Below, in pieces: positions 1 to 19,235 of a stretch of 41,687 bases of DNA (its first letter is position 1; each line of letters opens with the position of its first letter). Below the pieces are notes generated by a model, which saw only the letters and a list, made by a program, of their open reading frames with translations, made no database searches and was not told the DNA's origin. The DNA comes from a virus (lineage: Duplodnaviria > Heunggongvirae > Uroviricota > Caudoviricetes). Where the stretch lies: IMG/VR virus record IMGVR_UViG_637000104_000001, one strand, 5' to 3'. Both the position numbers and the translations under genes were made by a program.

Positions 1-3091
<3,091 letters not shown>

Positions 3092-3102
<11 letters not shown>

Positions 3103-7227: not shown

Positions 7228-7605
7228 TTACGCAGGTAGGTAAAGATATGATTGTGGTGGCTTAATATTACTACCTAGAGCAGAGATAGGAATTGGTTCT
7301 TTATATCTTTCCACTTCACCAATTTTTATTGCGTAGGCCTTTTCTCTACCTGAATAATATGAGTCATAAAATTGCTTAGAAATACCTGCGTGTTTTTCCG
7401 TCTTTTTCCAAAGAGATTCCGGTTCGTCACTTAGTATTGATTCAATACGGAATTGACCAACAACTTTACCTAATGGCATCGTGGCATAAATAACAACGGT
7501 GCTAATTTGCGGATTTTTGAATATACCTTTACGAAACTCGAACCGCTTTGTTCCGTTCAATATTTTTTCTGCAAACTCAGGCTTAATGGATAATAAAACT
7601 TTCAT
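7228..7605 (-). CDS. ASCH-domain protein (PUA-like fold), 125 aa
   Basis: N-terminal MKVLLSIKPEFAEKILNGTKRFEFRKG resembles the ASCH signature (..SIK..wAe.I..G.K..E.R); overlaps the upstream ORF by 23 nt. Confidence 0.6.
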   Translation of the reverse strand: MKVLLSIKPEFAEKILNGTKRFEFRKGIFKNPQISTVVIYATMPLGKVVGQFRIESILSDEPESLWKKTEKHAGISKQFYDSYYSGREKAYAIKIGEVERYKEPIPISALGSNIKPPQSYLYLPA

Positions 7606-8656
7606 TTATCTTGCCTAACTCGATGATCTTTAAGAACTGCTCATTTGTGAGTTTAAAGTGACTCCATCGGAATGCACGCGAACCATTTAGCCCCACATGA
7701 TCTATTAAAATAGCACGATTGGGTCTCTTTGGCAAAGACAGATTGTATGTGAATCTTATAATGAAAGGGTATCGACGTTCTTTATAGATTTTTCTGAGTT
7801 CATCTTCAGAAAATACGCTAAAACGAATACAATAGTCTACAAAACTATCTTCGCTTAAAAATTCAGAAATATTTTTTACGCTCTCAACTACACATAATGT
7901 ACTGGCTACAGAACGATAGCGAGCTGGCCCTTTTTTGTCTCCGGTTCTATAGATGACAATGATATCTCCTCTTTTCATTCCCATCACAGAACGCATTCCA
8001 CATATGTAAATTTTATGAATGCTGTTAGCATGGGATATATCTTTGACAATATCTGGTGATTCATTTACAAGTTTTGAATCAGGGAATAGTCTAGTGTGAT
8101 ATTCGGGATAAATCGCCAGTAAATATTTGTTGGCCCTTGATGTCATTATTCGAGGGTAATCTAATAAAATATCACCATAAGGCTCATGCAAAGACCTCGC
8201 ATATACAAACTCTTTCCCGTTATGTGTTTCTTTTTCACCATGAATGTAAAATCCGTACGTTTGGAAAAGTTTTATTAGATGGACGTGTTTGTCGAAAACA
8301 GTAACATAAATATCATCAGATTTTGATGAAAATGCATGGTCAAACGCTTTTTTTAGAAATCGTTGTCCGCGAAGGGTGCCTTTAGATTCAAATTTGAATG
8401 TTCCTATCTTTAGATGACGTCCTGGTGGGAGCGCTGGATTAATGTCATTTGCATCATCATTTTCTTTTAGATACATAAAACCTTCGATTTTATGCTTGTC
8501 ATCATAGAGCACATAAGCTGATTCTCCTTCTCTGGCTTTTTTTTCTAACCAAAGAGGAAACTCTTTATAATCTTTTTTTAAAGAGTCAAAAAATGGGTCA
8601 TTGTGATCAAAATCAGAGAATTTCTCATATTTTAAAGTATCCATTAAGTTCTCCAT
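7583..8656 (-). CDS. GNAT-like acetyltransferase-fold protein with unassigned C-terminal domain, 357 aa (alternative start at Met5)
   Basis: N-terminal half has GNAT-like elements (LKIGTFKFESKGTLRGQRFLKKAF; LIKLFQTYGFYIHGE resembling the a..LY.k.GF motif). Sits directly downstream of the repressor gene on the same strand. Fold assignment is from motif reading only. Confidence 0.45.
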   Translation of the reverse strand: MENLMDTLKYEKFSDFDHNDPFFDSLKKDYKEFPLWLEKKAREGESAYVLYDDKHKIEGFMYLKENDDANDINPALPPGRHLKIGTFKFESKGTLRGQRFLKKAFDHAFSSKSDDIYVTVFDKHVHLIKLFQTYGFYIHGEKETHNGKEFVYARSLHEPYGDILLDYPRIMTSRANKYLLAIYPEYHTRLFPDSKLVNESPDIVKDISHANSIHKIYICGMRSVMGMKRGDIIVIYRTGDKKGPARYRSVASTLCVVESVKNISEFLSEDSFVDYCIRFSVFSEDELRKIYKERRYPFIIRFTYNLSLPKRPNRAILIDHVGLNGSRAFRWSHFKLTNEQFLKIIELGKINESFIIH

Positions 8657-8724: not shown

Positions 8725-9453
8725 CTATCCATGCTTCCTATACGTCTGCGGCATGCTCCCAATAACTTTCCCGAAGATAAATACCCGGTTCATCTCATCT
8801 TTCTCGATCGGGTCCCACGGTGAGTAGCTTTTGTTATCAGAGATAACCAGCAGCTTATCCTTCATCATTTGCAGGCGCTTTACATGGGCTGTGTCGTCGT
8901 ACAGAAACGCATAGATACCATCACCGTCGAAAGATTTAACCGTGATATCAACGAATAGAAGATCACCAGGTTCAATCGTTCCTGACATGCTGTCACCGCG
9001 TACGTTAATGATGCGGATATTTTCTGCCTTCCTACCATCGAACATGTGACGAGCATCGTCAAACGAGTACTCAACCGAGCGTAGAACTTCTACAAACTCA
9101 CGGTTGATGACTCCCGGCCCGGCACTCACTTCTATATCAAGAACGTCAATTTTAAAGTATTTGGAATAGCTGACAGCAGGCTTCCCTGATTGTTGACCGT
9201 CATTTCTCATCGGGCCTATGCCTGATGAGAGCCATTCTGTTCGAACACCCAATGCATTAGCTATTTCAACAATTTTTGTTGAGCCGCGCGCGTTGCCGCT
9301 TGTCAGTCTCCAGATTGTGGGTTGAGCTACGCCAGACGCCTTTGCAAGAGCGCCTTGAGACATTCCAGATTGTTCCATCGCTAGGTTTAAGCGATCAGCA
9401 AGAGTTTCTTTTTTCATAAGTTTTAATTTATACGCTTGCGTATTGATGGTCAA
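8725..9453 (-). CDS. CI-like prophage repressor (HTH N-terminus + S24 LexA-like autopeptidase C-terminus)
   Basis: HTH region QGALAKASGVAQPTIWRL; S24 catalytic Ser in VRGDSMSG and Lys in HVKRL. Divergent from the cro-like gene. The true start may be the internal Met (MKKETLADRLN). Confidence 0.85.
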   Translation of the reverse strand: MTINTQAYKLKLMKKETLADRLNLAMEQSGMSQGALAKASGVAQPTIWRLTSGNARGSTKIVEIANALGVRTEWLSSGIGPMRNDGQQSGKPAVSYSKYFKIDVLDIEVSAGPGVINREFVEVLRSVEYSFDDARHMFDGRKAENIRIINVRGDSMSGTIEPGDLLFVDITVKSFDGDGIYAFLYDDTAHVKRLQMMKDKLLVISDNKSYSPWDPIEKDEMNRVFIFGKVIGSMPQTYRKHG

Positions 9454-9779: not shown

Positions 9780-10325
9780 ATGACTATGCAACCACTTACA
9801 TACCAACAGACTAGCGGATTTAGCCCGACTGCGGTGATAAATCGTTCTCAAACAAAACAGGCGCCAGGCCACGAAAAAATCCGTGATGCCGTTCGCGCCT
9901 GGTCGGCTGCAGATAATCAGGATGTTGTTGCCGCACTCATTGTGAATGAGTATCGGGAGCAGGGCGGCGGCACCATCGATTTCCCTGATGATGTCAGCCG
10001 TGCACGCCAGAAGCTGTTCCGCTTTCTCGATAACAAATTCGATTCTGAAAAATACCGAAATAACGTGCGTGAACTGACCCCGGCAATTCTGGCGGTACTA
10101 CCGCTGGAATATCGCGGCCACCTGGTTGAGCAGGATAGCTACATGGCTCGGCTGGCTGAAATGGAAAAGGAACTCAGTGAGGCAAAACAGGCTGTCATTC
10201 TCAACGCACCACGCCACCAGAAACTGAAGGAGATGAGTGAAGGCATTGTGTCGATGTTTCGTGTGGACCCGGATCTGGCTGGTCCATTGATGGCGATGGT
10301 CACCACCATGCTGGGGGCAATATGA
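9780..10325 (+). CDS. CII-like regulatory protein (YdaT/CII-analogue position), 181 aa
   Basis: Position between the cro-like gene and O; the assignment is positional only. Confidence 0.4.
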   Translation: MTMQPLTYQQTSGFSPTAVINRSQTKQAPGHEKIRDAVRAWSAADNQDVVAALIVNEYREQGGGTIDFPDDVSRARQKLFRFLDNKFDSEKYRNNVRELTPAILAVLPLEYRGHLVEQDSYMARLAEMEKELSEAKQAVILNAPRHQKLKEMSEGIVSMFRVDPDLAGPLMAMVTTMLGAI

Positions 10326-12129: not shown

Positions 12130-12558
12130 TTATTTAGACAAACTATCTAATTTCTGCGTCGCTTTTTGTGTTAGGTCGCTGTAACTGATAAACCCTACGT
12201 TAGCACCTACAATTAACACTAAGAACACTAAGCTGCATATGGATAGAGTGGCAGATTTATGCTTATGGAAAACAAAATATGCTACTATTGCACTTAATAT
12301 GAAGGAAATGAATAGAAATATAGATGTTGATGTTTTTAGATATTTTTCAGGAAATAATGGGTGAGCAATAATGTATACAAGATTAAGTAGTATATAAATT
12401 GCTACCGGAATGAAAATCATGCTCCAGTGTGTATCTTTTTTGGGAGGGATTGGCTGCAAATAATCAGACACCGTTTTTCCATCAGTTTCAAGAAGAATTA
12501 CTAGATCTCTTACTTCACCACTGACTTGAGTGCCATCCTTAGTAGTAATGTTAATCAT
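12130..12558 (-). CDS. Small integral membrane protein (about 142 aa, three predicted TM helices)
   Basis: Hydrophobic segments IFIPVAIYILLNLVYIIA, IFLFISFILSAIVAYFVF and LSICSLVFLVLIVGANVGFI. Start chosen at the ATG forming an ATGA overlap with the upstream stop (12555-12558). Antisense to the replication operon. Confidence 0.5.
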   Translation of the reverse strand: MINITTKDGTQVSGEVRDLVILLETDGKTVSDYLQPIPPKKDTHWSMIFIPVAIYILLNLVYIIAHPLFPEKYLKTSTSIFLFISFILSAIVAYFVFHKHKSATLSICSLVFLVLIVGANVGFISYSDLTQKATQKLDSLSK

Positions 12559-12932
12559 TTTTTCCCTCCAAATACGATTCCCTCTACGTCTTTGGAAGCT
12601 TTTTGTGATGACCACTCCTCTGAATCAGGTGATTTAATTAAAAATATTGTATCTCCATCAAAAATCGTATTTGTTCCGTAAAAATTTACATTTGATAGAT
12701 CACCACCAAAAACCCTCTGCCCACTCGAGGTAATTGCCTCACCTAATTTAGTAAAATTACCTGCAATAGATGATTTTCTTTTTCCACTTCTATTCAAAGT
12801 GGCTTTAATTACACCACCACCATCCTTAGAGTTAAATAATTGAATGTCCACTCCAGCAGTTGGTTGTATATATTTTGAAAGCTCTTTCTTGAACTTGTTA
12901 ATATATTTATCTTTGTTTTCTTTGTTGGTCAT
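12555..12932 (-). CDS. Hypothetical soluble protein, 125 aa, Gly-rich
   Basis: ORF translationally coupled to the downstream membrane protein gene; no recognised motif. Confidence 0.45.
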   Translation of the reverse strand: MTNKENKDKYINKFKKELSKYIQPTAGVDIQLFNSKDGGGVIKATLNRSGKRKSSIAGNFTKLGEAITSSGQRVFGGDLSNVNFYGTNTIFDGDTIFLIKSPDSEEWSSQKASKDVEGIVFGGKK

Positions 12933-14604: not shown

Positions 14605-14689
14605 AGTCAGAGATAACAATCAACTAATACTGTTTTGTTGATTTTTGCTTGTAATTGGCGTTCTGGTCTGATTTTTGTGGAGTAAGTTG

Positions 14690-15073
14690 ATGCGTGATAT
14701 TCAGATGGTTCTTGAGCGTTGGGGTGCGTGGGCGGCTAATAATCATGAAGATGTGACCTGGTCGTCCATTGCCGCCGGTTTTAAGGGATTAATTCCTTCA
14801 AAAGTAAAATCTCGCCCGCAATGTTGTGACGATGACGCGATGATCATTTGCGGGTGCATGGCCCGTCTGAAAAAGAACAACAGCGATTTACACGATTTAT
14901 TAGTAGATTATTATGTATGTGGTATGACATTCATGTCACTGGCAAGTAAGCATTGCTGCTCGGATGGTTATATCGGGAAAAGGTTACAGAAGGCTGAGGG
15001 CATAATTGAAGGGATGTTAATGGCATTAGATATCCGGTTAGATATGGATATCGTTGCTAATAATTCTAATTGA
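14690..15073 (+). CDS. quuD: Late-gene antiterminator Q (phage 82 / DLP12 QuuD type)
   Basis: [31 protein letters not shown]... with a Cys-rich zinc-binding region; start taken at ATG 14690 rather than the TTG at 14675. Confidence 0.88.
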
Positions 15074-15096
15074 TATGCAATTGTTTACTAAAAGTT

Positions 15097-15124
15097 ATTA
15101 AAAATGGGGCGTGGAAACGCCCCC
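15097..15124 (-). terminator. Intrinsic terminator (minus-strand orientation) downstream of the porin gene
   Basis: Hairpin GGGGCG-TGGAAA-CGCCCC (15107-15124), followed on the minus strand by ATTTTTAATAA. Confidence 0.55.
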
Positions 15125-15210
15125 AAAATAAAGGGTAATATATAACAGAAGGTTTATATAGTAAGAAGCAAGGTAGTGCTTCTAAAGGAAGTGGCTTGAG
15201 GGCTCCACTT

Positions 15211-15250
15211 ATATGTTGCGGAGGCAAAGCCTCCCGCAACATATCTTTTT
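15211..15250 (+). terminator. Strong hairpin, candidate bidirectional terminator between Q and the porin gene
   Basis: Perfect 15-bp stem ATATGTTGCGGAGGC / GCCTCCCGCAACATAT with a 3-nt loop, followed by CTTTTT on the plus strand; lies 11 nt past the porin stop on the minus strand. Confidence 0.6.
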
Positions 15251-15261
15251 CGTAAGTCAGA

Positions 15262-16344
15262 TTAGAACTGATAAACCAGACCTACAGCGACGATGTCGTC
15301 GGTATCAATACCAGCTGTTTTGGTAAACTTACTATCGTCAATTAAGTTGATTTTGTAATCAACAAAAGTGGACATGTTTTTATTAAAGTAGTAAGTAGCA
15401 CCGACATCGACATACTTGACTAAGTCTCGGTCACCATGAACACCAAGGTCTTTACCTTTTGACTGAAGGTAAGCAACAGATGGACGCAGACCGAAGTCAA
15501 ACTGATATTGTGCTACTGCTTCAAAGTTTTGTGCTTTGTTTGCAATATGGTTATTACCAAAAACGGTCATATTCTGAGTTTCAGAATATGTGGTAGCCAG
15601 ATAGATATTGTTCGCATCATATTTCAGGCCTGCAGCCCATACTTCCGCATTTTTGCCGGAGGCATTGAATTTGCTCTTACCATAGGCGACCTGACCGTCA
15701 GTGCGATCTGATTTAGCATAGGTTGCACCCACGCCGAATCCTTCATACTCATAAGTAGTGGAGAAACCGAAACCATCACCATTGGCTTCAGTTACGTCAG
15801 TGCGGTCATTTTTACCCTGATACTGAGCAGCAAAGTTCAGGCCATCGACCAGACCAAAGAAGTCGTTGTTACGATAAGTTGCAACACCAGTAGTGCGACC
15901 AGTCATGAACACATCTGTTTGGGTCCAGGTATCACCACCGAATTCTGGCAGAACGTCAGTCCACGCACCGATGTCGTATGCTACACCGTAGTTACGGCCG
16001 TAATCGATTGAGCCGTAATCACCAAATTTCAGGCCTGCAAATGCAAGACGGGTTTTGTCTTTGGAAGAACCTTGAGATTCAGCACGGTTGCCTTTGAATT
16101 CATATTCCCACTGACCGAAACCAGTCAGTTGATCGTTGATTTGGGTTTCACCTTTGAAGCCAAGACGGGCATAAGTAGTATCACCATCATCTGCATCATT
16201 AGAGGAGAAGTAGTGCTTGGCATTAACTTTCCCGTATAGATCCAGCTTGTTACTGTCTTTATTATAAATTTCAGCTGCCTGAGCAGACATCGCCATCAGT
16301 ACTGATGCAGCTACAGCAGAAATTGCCACTGTTAATTTTTTCAT
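15262..16344 (-). CDS. nmpC: OmpC-family general porin (NmpC/OmpD-like), 360 aa
   Basis: Signal peptide [30 protein letters not shown] start of the mature protein, C-terminal VGLVYQF beta-barrel signature. Start taken at internal ATG 16344 (the ORF-track start 16404 is upstream of the signal peptide). Confidence 0.9.
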
Positions 16345-16770
16345 TGTACGCCCTTTTTTTGAACTATTATTAAAAAATGATGTCACTGCGCGATAAATAT
16401 TCATCTAATCAATGTGATTATTTCAAGATGTAAGTTTTAGTTTCTCATTTAATTTGTGAAGTAGATCTCTATTTTTATCGGAACCTTTTCTATCTAATCC
16501 TATTCATGGCTCTTGTCTGAACAAAAATAAATCTATTAGCTAATTTATATTAATGGCACTTATTTATAAGTGCTCTATAATTCTTTAGCTTAATTTAAAC
16601 AAACTAAAAATAACATCGGAAATTATTAACTGGTTATTTGTTGAAGTTTTCTTATGCATTTGTGGTGGTGTTTTGAACACTCGGTGGCATTCTCACAAAT
16701 ATCATTTAGTAGTTTACGTACGTAAAAAATTGGTTATGCTGTTAAGAGTGGTTACTTCGTCACACAGCTT

Positions 16771-16803
16771 AAACCCGCCGTCGAGCGGGTTTTTCCATTT
16801 TTT
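16771..16803 (+). terminator. Intrinsic terminator upstream of the lysis genes (candidate tR', target of Q antitermination)
   Basis: Hairpin ACCCGC-CGTCGA-GCGGGT followed by TTTTCCATTTTTT; a perfect TATAAT at 16576-16581 lies about 200 nt upstream (candidate pR' -10). Confidence 0.5.
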
Positions 16804-16932
16804 GAGTCTCGATATTAGCTGATAACCCAATACCTGAGTTATTCACTGACTCCGAATCTGTTACGTTTCTGCCTTTATTGCGATACGTAGTATCCCCTTA
16901 ATTTACACCCGCTTTGTCTGCGAGGTGGGGTT

Positions 16933-17148
16933 ATGAAATCCATGGATAAGTTAACAACGGGTGTCGCCTATGGTACCTCAGCAGGTAGTGCCGGGTACTG
17001 GTTTTTACAGTTGCTCGATAAAGTCACGCCCTCACAGTGGGCGGCAATAGGTGTGCTGGGTAGCCTGGTATTTGGCCTGCTGACGTACCTGACAAACCTT
17101 TATTTCAAGATTAAAGAAGATAAGCGCAAGGCTGCGAGAGGTGAATAA
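16933..17148 (+). CDS. S: Pinholin (phage 21 S21-type), dual-start motif
   Basis: 71 aa; [26 protein letters not shown]..., two TM domains; Met1/Met4 dual start as in S21-71/S21-68. Confidence 0.9.
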
Positions 17149-17645
17149 TGCCTCCATCATTACGAAAAGCCGTTGCTGCTGCTATTGGTGGCGGAGCAAT
17201 TGCTATAGCATCAGTGTTAATCACTGGCCCAAGTGGTAACGATGGTCTGGAAGGTGTCAGCTACATACCATACAAAGATATTGTTGGTGTATGGACTGTA
17301 TGTCACGGGCATACAGGAAAAGACATCATGCTCGGTAAAACGTATACCAAAGCAGAATGCAAAGCACTCCTGAATAAAGACCTTGCCACTGTCGCCAGAC
17401 AAATTAACCCGTACATCACAGTCGATATACCGGAAACAACGCGCGGCGCTCTTTACTCATTCGTTTACAACGTGGGTGCTGGTAATTTCAGAACATCGAC
17501 GCTTCTTCGCAAAATAAACCAGGGCGATATCAAAGGCTCATGTGATCAGCTACGTCGCTGGACATATGCTGGCGGTAAGCAATGGAAAGGTCTCATGACT
17601 CGTCGTGAGATTGAGCGTGAAATCTGTTTGTGGGGTCAGCAATGA
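17148..17645 (+). CDS. R: SAR endolysin (lysozyme with N-terminal signal-arrest-release domain)
   Basis: Gly/Ala-rich weakly hydrophobic N-terminus [20 protein letters not shown] followed by a lysozyme domain; ATGA-type overlaps with S and Rz. Confidence 0.9.
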
Positions 17646-18103
17646 ACAGAGTAACCGCGATTATCTCCGCTCTGGTTATCTGCATCATCGTCTGCCTGTC
17701 ATGGGCTGTTAATCATTACCGTAATAACGCCATTACCTACAAAGCCCAGCGCGACAAAAATGCCAGAGAACTGAAGCTGGCGAACGCGGCAATTACTGAC
17801 ATGCAGATGCGTCAGCGTGATGTTGCTGCGCTCGATGCAAAATACACGAAGGAGTTAGCTGATGCGAAAGCTGAAAATGATGCTCTGCGTGATGATGTTG
17901 CCGCTGGTCGTCGTCGGTTGCACATCAAAGCAGTCTGTCAGTCAGTGCGTGAAGCCACCACCGCCTCCGGCGTGGATAATGCAGCCTCCCCCCGACTGGC
18001 AGACACCGCTGAACGGGATTATTTCACCCTCAGAGAGAGGCTGATCACTATGCAAAAACAACTGGAAGGAACCCAGAAGTATATTAATGAGCAGTGCAGA
18101 TAG
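17642..18103 (+). CDS. Rz: i-spanin Rz
   Basis: N-terminal TM segment, coiled-coil periplasmic domain; start ATG 17642 overlapping the R stop. Confidence 0.85.
17862..18044 (+). CDS. Rz1: o-spanin Rz1 (lipoprotein embedded in the +1 frame of Rz)
   Basis: Lipobox LVVVGC, proline-rich mature peptide ([15 protein letters not shown]); entirely inside Rz. Confidence 0.85.
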
Positions 18104-18134: not shown

Positions 18135-18428
18135 TTATTGTGAGCAATACACACGCGCTTCCAGCGGAGTATAAATGCCTAAAGTAATAAAACCGAGCAA
18201 TCCATTTACGAATGTTTGCTGGGTTTCTGTTTTAACAACATTTTCTGCACCACCACAAATTTTTGCTGCATCGACAGTTTTCTTCTGCCCAATTCCCGAA
18301 ACGAAGAAATGATGGGTGATGGTTTCCTTTGGTGTTACTGCTGTAGGTTTGTTTCCAACAGTAAACGTCTGTTGAGCACATCCTGTAATAAGCATTGCCA
18401 GAGCGGCAGAAAACAACATTTTTTTCAT
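18135..18428 (-). CDS. bor: Bor outer-membrane lipoprotein (serum-resistance-associated), 97 aa
   Basis: MKKMLFSAALAMLITGCAQQTFTV... lipobox; matches remembered lambda Bor; start taken at internal ATG 18428. Confidence 0.88.
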   Translation of the reverse strand: MKKMLFSAALAMLITGCAQQTFTVGNKPTAVTPKETITHHFFVSGIGQKKTVDAAKICGGAENVVKTETQQTFVNGLLGFITLGIYTPLEARVYCSQ

Positions 18429-18908
18429 CTTATTATCCTGCATTGTTAAAAACGGCAGAATCCTATGTGACAACAATTAAACGATAGTTAAATGGATTGA
18501 TGAAAATTAAAACTACACAGGTGGGCTCAGACTATTGGAGGAAGTTGGGGACACTCAGAATCCTGTGGAATGAAATAAACCGGTCTATCCGTCCATTACC
18601 CTTTTAGCTGCGCTGTATCGTCGCCGTATTCCCGCATTAACCATGACCGTAGCCCGACGGGGAATTCCTTCTGCGTGAGTGTGCGGGAATAATTAAAAAC
18701 GATGCACACCGGGTTTTTACCGCGTTAATGATTCGCGGGTTTATCCCGGTGCGATGGTGGAAGAAACAGGAAGCTGTATTACAGAAAGTGCTACTACTGT
18801 ATCCCGATGCGATGTATGTAATGTGAGTCAGATAATGGCACAGGATGTGGTGATGTGGCAGTCTGGAACACAGGATATATTGTCAGAATAAGACCCGTAG
18901 GAATAAAA

Positions 18909-19235
18909 ATGAAAAGACGCCTTTTACTACTTTTTCTGTTATCTGTCCTGGCAGTGGGATGCTCGCAGCAAAAAGCTGATGAGCCCCGGCAATTAGTGAC
19001 GGTGTATCCACGATATCCGGAATATGCTGCAGCAAATTATATCAAGGGGCTGGTTGAGGTTAAGTTCGATATTGGTGCTGATGGGACTGTGACACGGATC
19101 GTTTTTCTCCGCTCAGAGCCTCATAATTTGTTTCGTGATGAAGTGGTGAAGGCCATGGCGAAATGGCGATTTGAAAAGAATCGCCCCTGTCAGGGAGTGA
19201 AGAGACAATTTATCTTTACGCCGTCACGTCCTTGA
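18909..19235 (+). CDS. Lipoprotein with TonB C-terminal-like domain, 108 aa
   Basis: Signal peptide plus lipobox (LLSVLAVGCS); the mature region resembles a TonB-C fold (VKFDIGADGTVTRIVFLRS...). Start at ATG 18909. Confidence 0.55.
   Translation: MKRRLLLLFLLSVLAVGCSQQKADEPRQLVTVYPRYPEYAAANYIKGLVEVKFDIGADGTVTRIVFLRSEPHNLFRDEVVKAMAKWRFEKNRPCQGVKRQFIFTPSRP

Follow-up and report, generated by a model that had tools for sequence, protein, structure and literature searches.

Porin genes lying between the late antiterminator gene Q and the late promoter of lambdoid phages are a textbook arrangement, already well known and common in Escherichia coli. Two of them, lc of phage PA-2 and nmpC of the K-12 prophage DLP12, occupy exactly the same phage site and were sequenced in the 1980s; the small RNA IpeX, situated between the porin stop codon and a rho-independent terminator, was described in 2006. 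Here we analyse a further case in the IMG/VR virus record IMGVR_UViG_637000104_000001 (Caudoviricetes), whose whole stretch of 41,687 nucleotides (nt) is called the window below. The window is a lambdoid prophage that, over 32.2 kb, matches the icd-adjacent prophage of uropathogenic E. coli 536 at 99.994% identity, and it carries a porin gene on its minus strand (15262–16344). We propose, with a probability of roughly 0.8, that this gene and the IpeX-like 3' untranslated region (3'UTR) behind it form a classical lambdoid-phage conversion cassette through which the porins of the lysogen would be swapped. For annotation, the RefSeq entry "porin OmpC" becomes an intact prophage porin of the NmpC/Lc type, a hitherto unannotated IpeX homologue is added, and the late promoter pR' can be placed by homology.

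An intact porin gene at a known phage site

The porin gene and the DNA upstream of it comprise the following features.

15262–16344, minus strand: porin gene of the NmpC/Lc type, encoding a 360-residue precursor (23-residue signal peptide plus 337-residue mature protein).
16345–16712, minus strand: 5' region of the porin gene, 28% GC, presumed to hold its promoter.
16426–16397, minus strand: weak candidate porin promoter, TTGAAA-18-GAATAT (8/12 sigma-70 matches).

The open reading frame (ORF) starts with MKKLTV and runs intact through 360 codons to a single terminal stop. The Pfam profile Porin_1 (PF00267) spans residues 29–360 over its full length (1–337 of 337; E = 1.9e-151), and the closest solved structures, OmpC, OmpK37 and OmpK36 (E about 1e-137) followed by PhoE, match residues 24–360 with E-values of about 1e-133 to 1e-137. 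Alignment with the annotated record of PA-2 lc shows the 23-residue signal peptide to be identical to the sig_peptide given there. The mature protein begins AEIYNKD, matching the general-porin pattern AE(I/V)YNKD after an A-x-A cleavage site, the constriction-loop (L3) motif PEFGGD stands at residues 133–138, and the C-terminus reads GLVYQF, its terminal Phe being an outer-membrane assembly signal; the K-12 copy loses that end through the insertion sequence IS5. An AlphaFold2 model has 16 strands plus a short N-terminal strand, at a moderate predicted local distance difference test score of 65 and with L3 poorly modelled. Profile, signal peptide, motif, C-terminal Phe and model place the protein among the general bacterial porins of the OmpC/OmpF/PhoE class, and from the predicted fold the mature 337-residue form should be a 16-stranded trimeric general diffusion pore. 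An alternative start at ATG 16404, giving a 380-residue ORF, was rejected as a mechanical upstream extension, the 360-residue form being the one with the Lc signal peptide. The first-pass annotation, which had described a complete OmpC-family porin with an intact signal peptide on the minus strand between quuD and the pR'/tR' region, was right in coordinates, strand and intactness.

Compared with nmpC and ompD alleles, the window's porin shares 93% of its protein sequence with the K-12 NmpC fragment; the figure is 92% for PA-2 Lc and about 79% for OmpD of Salmonella. When 5.8 billion proteins were searched, the closest relatives bearing a name were E. coli entries called "NmpC precursor", "porin protein LC" and "porin OmpC" (about 90–94%), and after the E. 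coli relatives came Salmonella and Citrobacter OmpD (about 78–80%). OmpD of Salmonella enterica is also nearer than E. coli OmpC, PhoE and OmpF (bit score 623 versus 450, 447 and 403, respectively). However, Salmonella ompD is a chromosomal gene with EamA-type and GFA/MFS genes as neighbours; neither its signal peptide nor its 5' region or 3'UTR is related to that of the window, and no IpeX-like sequence is found there. Since ompD shares the mature coding part only, in a non-phage context, the window's gene represents, on sequence grounds, the NmpC/Lc/OmpD clade in its phage form, for which the RefSeq name "porin OmpC" is a generic one.

The location is equally familiar. In PA-2 the lc gene (porin Lc, "protein 2"; GenBank J02580) is placed and oriented just as the window's porin is with respect to the lysis genes, and the upstream regions of the two genes are 95% identical. 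DLP12 (qsr') of E. coli K-12 shares with the window the order ybcN-ninE-ybcO-rusA-ylcG-quuD-porin-essD-rrrD-rzpD-bor. The earlier statement that DLP12 carries nmpC at the equivalent site is thus borne out by alignment in position, orientation and gene order. IS5 cuts the K-12 gene after codon 346, whereas the copy in the window is uninterrupted. The layout Q-porin-holin, with the porin antisense, is annotated likewise in four retrieved phage records and among the matches listed of 36.

Comparison of seven phage copies shows the allele to be mosaic. All of them share at least 96% identity over the first ~450 nt of the porin gene, and from about nt 500 onward identity to the window's copy is 60–82% for the Lc/NmpC type and 75–93% for the ev099 type. 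At the protein level, the window's porin (360 residues) and PA-2 Lc (365 residues) differ in five patches (residues 182–187, 217–228, 263–267, 303–306 and 335–350), which lie in outward loops predicted by AlphaFold2 (L4 177–190, L5 214–231, L6 258–269, L7 299–305 and L8 334–350). A conserved 5' half is therefore joined to a 3' half that diverges in predicted surface loops L4–L8, a pattern consistent with recombination, or with diversifying selection acting on exposed loops. Divergence concentrated in exposed loops implies, in turn, an expressed surface protein.

Of 5426 complete E. coli genomes, 3139 have matches to the porin and 2500 the IpeX-like 3'UTR; the entire Q-porin-holin segment (at least 80% coverage) was found in 2391 genomes and 36 phage records, among them inducible phages whose porin is annotated "OmpD" or "NmpC". 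At an identity of at least 99%, the porin allele of the window recurs in 1224 records and its 3'UTR variant in just 677, so that one porin allele must be paired with differing IpeX variants, more evidence of mosaic exchange. This allele pattern, and a presence in about half of complete E. coli genomes, are relevant to phage-receptor research, and bear equally on porin-mediated antibiotic entry and on outer-membrane vaccine antigens in extraintestinal pathogenic E. coli. A separate observation concerns phage 434: isolate 434B (OL657227.1, 1–3400) contains a DLP12-type Q-nmpC::IS5-holin region with IS5 after codon 346, as in K-12, which suggests that recombination with its K-12 host gave this stock the qsr' region.

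The porin is plausibly expressed cargo, given that its upstream region is 95% like that of the functional lc and that homologues are made in wild strains. A CRP-site position of the PA-2 record J02580, mapped by hand from the alignment, falls at about 16452–16472 of the window. Two nmpC genes of strain CFT073 have been reported as strongly favoured at 37 °C at both the mRNA and the protein level, and NmpC homologues have been detected in Nissle vesicles and in outer-membrane gels of adherent-invasive E. coli (AIEC); these reports concern the nmpC homologues of those strains and not the window's exact copy. The proposal of lysogenic-conversion cargo, intact here, accordingly keeps its footing as regards the gene itself (intact ORF, no IS5), with expression plausible by analogy.

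The gene could instead be a quiescent passenger, as in E. coli K-12 and B, retained since a conserved phage segment happens to hold it. Silence of nmpC in laboratory strains is described in PMC3333887, no strong promoter match stands upstream of the porin, and DNA of 28% GC would be of the kind often silenced by H-NS. Yet the silence in K-12 is explained by IS5, which the window's copy lacks; ORF, signal peptide and C-terminal Phe are all intact in an allele shared at 99% or more by the 1224 records; homologues have been seen as protein in CFT073, Nissle and AIEC; and divergence clustered in surface loops implies a protein under selection. We therefore consider passive carriage improbable, and an expressed conversion porin the better reading.

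The 3' untranslated region and its two hairpins

Downstream of the porin stop codon, three features fill the interval to Q.

15097–15261, minus strand: porin 3'UTR and IpeX homologue, about 165 nt long, reaching from the porin stop codon to the terminator U-run.
15098–15123, minus strand: predicted intrinsic terminator of the porin/IpeX transcript (terminator scan; stem 15106–15123, AUUUUU next).
15211–15250, plus strand: long hairpin of 15 base pairs (bp) with a 1-nt bulge, then CUUUUU; candidate terminator of the rightward Q transcript.

Over 191 aligned nt, the 3'UTR shares 93.8% identity with the DNA that follows nmpC in DLP12 and lc in PA-2, and its length of about 165 nt compares with 167 nt for IpeX, which likewise lies between the porin stop codon and a rho-independent terminator. 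Folded on the porin strand, it forms four stems plus the terminator (−53.6 kcal/mol, z = −5.93, none of 200 shuffles as good). Seven IpeX copies are 92–100% identical, with stems conserved, changes mostly in loops and one A-U to G-U change, a variation too small for a covariation test. An Rfam search of the whole window at the gathering threshold, and of 14900–17000 at E up to 5, gave no credible family, all hits being far below gathering scores; we know of no Rfam model for IpeX. Two reading frames within the region, a 58-residue ORF (15066–15242, minus strand) and the old "ORF1" of PA-2, were set aside as non-genes, the region being an RNA element. According to PMC12197685, PMC5069750 and PMC3333887, IpeX derived from the DLP12/PA-2 porin transcript represses OmpC and OmpF synthesis post-transcriptionally. 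The 3'UTR of the window is thus an IpeX homologue, and by analogy this variant would lower OmpC and OmpF as well.

The porin had been described as bracketed by two strong hairpins. Both are real at the coordinates given and beat their shuffles; both, however, lie on the 3' side of the gene, between the porin stop codon and Q. The first (stem 15106–15123) has 7 pairs, 6 of them G-C, and the tail ATTTTTAATA in the terminator scan, with a folding free energy (ΔG) of −14.6 kcal/mol for the stem (z = −2.96, 2 of 200 shuffles as good) and −13.8 kcal/mol for the minus-strand terminator; its stem is unchanged across seven divergent copies, variation being confined to the loop. The second (stem 15211–15244) is stronger, at −21.9 kcal/mol on the plus and −22.5 kcal/mol on the minus strand (z = −5.35, no shuffle of 200 as good). 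It was not picked up by a simple terminator scan, owing to its bulge. Its U-run is found on the plus strand only, and the hairpin ends 12 nt before the porin stop codon; read on the minus strand, its stem serves as the 5' stem of IpeX. We infer that this hairpin is a candidate terminator for rightward transcripts leaving Q. Rather than brackets, the two hairpins would then be parts of a structured IpeX 3'UTR and of two convergent terminators.

The conservation of this RNA raises the possibility that the IpeX 3'UTR alone is under selection, for down-regulation of OmpC and OmpF, with the porin ORF serving mainly as promoter and carrier transcript and making up for lost permeability. The 3'UTR is indeed far more conserved among copies (92–100%) than the 3' half of the porin coding sequence (60–82%), and Castillo-Keller et al. 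are said to have reported in 2006 that the lc 3'UTR, and not the Lc protein, causes OmpC inhibition. Against this, the reading frame is open in all seven copies compared (IS5-truncated in DLP12), every porin hallmark is kept, and it is the loops and not the barrel strands that diverge, indicating that the protein works and is exposed. Selection on IpeX alone is in our view unlikely, and it overlaps with the cassette of porin plus IpeX more than it replaces it.

The Q transcript (to about 15250) and the porin/IpeX transcript (to about 15098) are predicted to overlap antisense by about 150 nt, covering the whole of IpeX. Conceivably, RNA from the Q transcript might upon induction neutralise or destabilise IpeX and the 3' end of the porin mRNA, coupling the lytic switch to a reversal of the porin swap, or else coupling Q expression to porin transcription; we regard this as a long shot. 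If true, the overlap would be an antisense link between a conversion module and a phage developmental switch, of a kind that to our knowledge is undescribed.

The late promoter beyond the porin and the proposed porin swap

Q and the late functions flank the porin cassette.

14690–15073, plus strand: late antiterminator gene Q, quuD type, 127 residues (PF06530, E = 7.7e-54; mechanical ORF start TTG at 14675).
16713–16747, plus strand: late promoter pR' placed by homology (−35 TTTACG 16713–16718, 16-nt spacer, −10 TATGCT 16735–16740, start expected near 16747).
16771–16804, plus strand: candidate tR', hairpin 16771–16792 then UUUUUCCAUUUUUU (terminator scan, 8 pairs; ΔG −12.0 kcal/mol).
16933–18103, plus strand: lysis cassette, first late genes under pR' (Pfam and RefSeq annotation of strain 536).
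16933–17148, plus strand: P21-type holin essD (PF04971, E = 2e-35).
17148–17645, plus strand: lysozyme rrrD (PF00959, E = 7.6e-45).
17642–18103, plus strand: spanin rzpD (RefSeq annotation of strain 536).

The Q gene is annotated quuD in strain 536 and in K-12 DLP12. Its product is 81% identical over residues 5–125 to the Q of the VT2-Sakai/933W type, with a different C-terminal tail, and is distantly related to the Q21 structures 6P18 and 6JNX (E = 4e-8). The block 16710–16794 shows 78% identity to hundreds of records of Shiga toxin (Stx) phages, at the 3' end of their Q gene. In VT2-Sakai the counterpart region is annotated with a putative late promoter (TTTACG-16-TATCAT) abutting the Q stop, a Q-utilisation site and a terminator, and in the alignment TTTACG and TATGCT of the window sit on the two Sakai hexamers. 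Sy et al. mapped the start of the Sakai PR' transcript by differential RNA sequencing and its 3' end 258 nt downstream; a single genome-version offset of 142 nt puts that start 7 nt past the Sakai −10 hexamer and that 3' end at the close of the second annotated Sakai terminator, the distance being exactly 258 nt. The window and DLP12 are 100% identical in the pR' block and about 90% identical in the AT-rich DNA adjacent to it. A promoter scan of the interval from Q to the porin (15074–15261) gave no promoter-like site. Homology thus supports a pR' at 16713–16740, served by its cognate Q and with a start expected at the position given above. Because this homologue lies at 16713–16740 and none at 15074–15261, the porin cassette (about 15050–16710) is placed after Q and before the promoter on which Q acts. 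The view that the porin keeps Q and its target apart is therefore supported, with 1,639 bp from the Q stop to the −35 hexamer in place of the ~1.5 kb first suggested.

Late transcription might nonetheless begin right after Q, the arrangement seen in lambda and in Stx phages, and then run antisense through the porin. Phages of the 933W/Sakai type do have pR' abutting Q, and a GTTTAC resembling the −35 region of pR' stands 12 nt after the Q stop in the window. But this motif is followed by no −10 element, the scan of 15074–15261 found no promoter-like site, 16713–16794 holds the full counterpart of the Sakai promoter and initial transcribed region, completely conserved in DLP12, and the hairpin at 15211–15250 would end plus-strand RNA ahead of the porin. 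A Q-adjacent late promoter is accordingly highly improbable, and the placement of pR' beyond the porin is retained. A plus-strand site at 16553–16581 (ATGGCA-17-TATAAT) was also rejected as pR', having no homology to Stx-phage PR' and lying in DNA of 28% GC where chance matches are likely (3 seen versus 7.0 expected).

Several observations touch on the pR' region in their own right. GTTTAC stands 12 nt past the Q stop (15086–15091) and recurs at the −35 element of pR' (16712–16717); in Sakai, GTTTACG contains the −35 hexamer and takes in the final base of the TAG that ends Q. The repeat may be a scar of cassette insertion at the Q/pR' junction, or chance. From pR' to the holin start at 16933, the only terminator-like site in the scan is 16771–16804. 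The predicted pR' RNA (16747–16804, plus strand) corresponds by homology to the 5' segment of the PR' transcript of Stx phages, the source of the StxS small RNA; the 74-nt StxS portion has no counterpart here, and any constitutive pR' RNA would be a different species of about 50 nt. Finally, the PA-2 record of 1986 lists two CRP sites, and one of them (TGTGA-N6-AACCA, minus strand) maps to 16747–16767, over the initial transcribed region of pR' and the Sakai Q-utilisation segment, and that old assignment may be a misreading of late-promoter sequence.

Taken together, the locus would work as follows. In the lysogen, the porin would be transcribed leftward from its own promoter within 16345–16712, independent of the repressed early operons and diverging from the rightward late promoter. 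The transcript would encode the Sec-signal precursor, run on through the ~165-nt IpeX 3'UTR and stop at the hairpin and U-run at 15123–15098. IpeX would lower OmpC and OmpF synthesis, so that the phage porin would partly replace the major porins of the host, and this swap would alter receptor display, surface antigens and permeability. Q, a diffusible DNA-binding antiterminator, would act in trans at pR', and for this reason the 1.64-kb gap should not impair late control. With pR' beyond the porin and pointing away from it, late transcription would never cross the gene. Only early rightward transcription out of Q would run antisense into the porin, and the plus-strand terminator candidate at 15211–15250 is placed to halt it.

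Some findings weigh against this scheme or narrow it. In the sigma-70 scan of the minus strand upstream of the porin no site reached 9/12, several standing at 8/12. The IpeX of the window departs from the tested one by about 12 substitutions or indels, the second stem included: a C-C mismatch in the first stem becomes a bulged stem, and two other changes weaken the second, in an RNA whose mechanism is poorly understood even in DLP12. In Sakai, the mapped transcript end lies elsewhere than at the hairpin homologous to the proposed tR'. The C-terminal 260 residues of J are 99.6% identical to those of mEp460, 57% to lambda and 56% to h434; as no receptor can be inferred from these identities, receptor self-exclusion by the porin swap is not supported for the phage of the window. 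In addition, the prophage integrase is split by IS100, which makes any present-day benefit to a mobile phage moot.

Further cargo and comparison with known systems

Other parts of the prophage carry features of their own. The integrase gene is broken by IS100 (IS21-family; istB 685–1467 and istA 1464–2486, both on the minus strand), with int fragments at 1–669 and 2500–3102, and the icd-adjacent prophage probably cannot excise, though its head, tail and lysis genes look complete. Directly left of the cI-like repressor (8725–9453), in the position of rexAB in lambda, lies a candidate two-gene anti-phage system, PADLOC PDC-M11 (7228–8656, minus strand), made up of PDC-M11A (7583–8656, minus strand; E = 2e-133, no Pfam domain) and PDC-M11B (7228–7605, minus strand; E = 7e-52, ASCH domain). 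A protein with a YdaT_toxin domain (9780–10325, plus strand; E = 2.4e-29) follows the cro-like gene, at the place of cII in lambda. Two overlapping antisense ORFs of 161 and 125 residues (12130–12932, minus strand), situated between replication gene P and ybcN, gave no Pfam or PADLOC match above threshold; the 161-residue product has a weak sub-threshold match resembling seven-transmembrane proteins and looks membrane-bound, and the pair may be another moron. Two further cargo genes stand between the lysis cassette and the terminase, namely an iss/bor serum-resistance lipoprotein (18135–18428, minus strand; Lambda_Bor, E = 1.7e-30) and a 126-residue protein with a TonB C-terminal domain (18855–19235, plus strand; E = 1.1e-12).

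DLP12 resides at argU and is heavily decayed, whereas the prophage of the window adjoins icd and has full sets of head and tail genes, with int split by IS100. The late switch is closest to the Q-pR'-tR' arrangement of 933W and VT2-Sakai, to which it is related by a Q of 81% identity and an initial transcribed region block of 78%, with the same hexamer spacing; the Sakai tR' at +258 is without counterpart here. In Stx phages pR' abuts Q, and the stx cargo lies downstream of tR' and is expressed upon induction. The cargo of the window, in contrast, lies upstream of pR' on the opposite strand and outside the late transcript, and so can be expressed in the lysogen.

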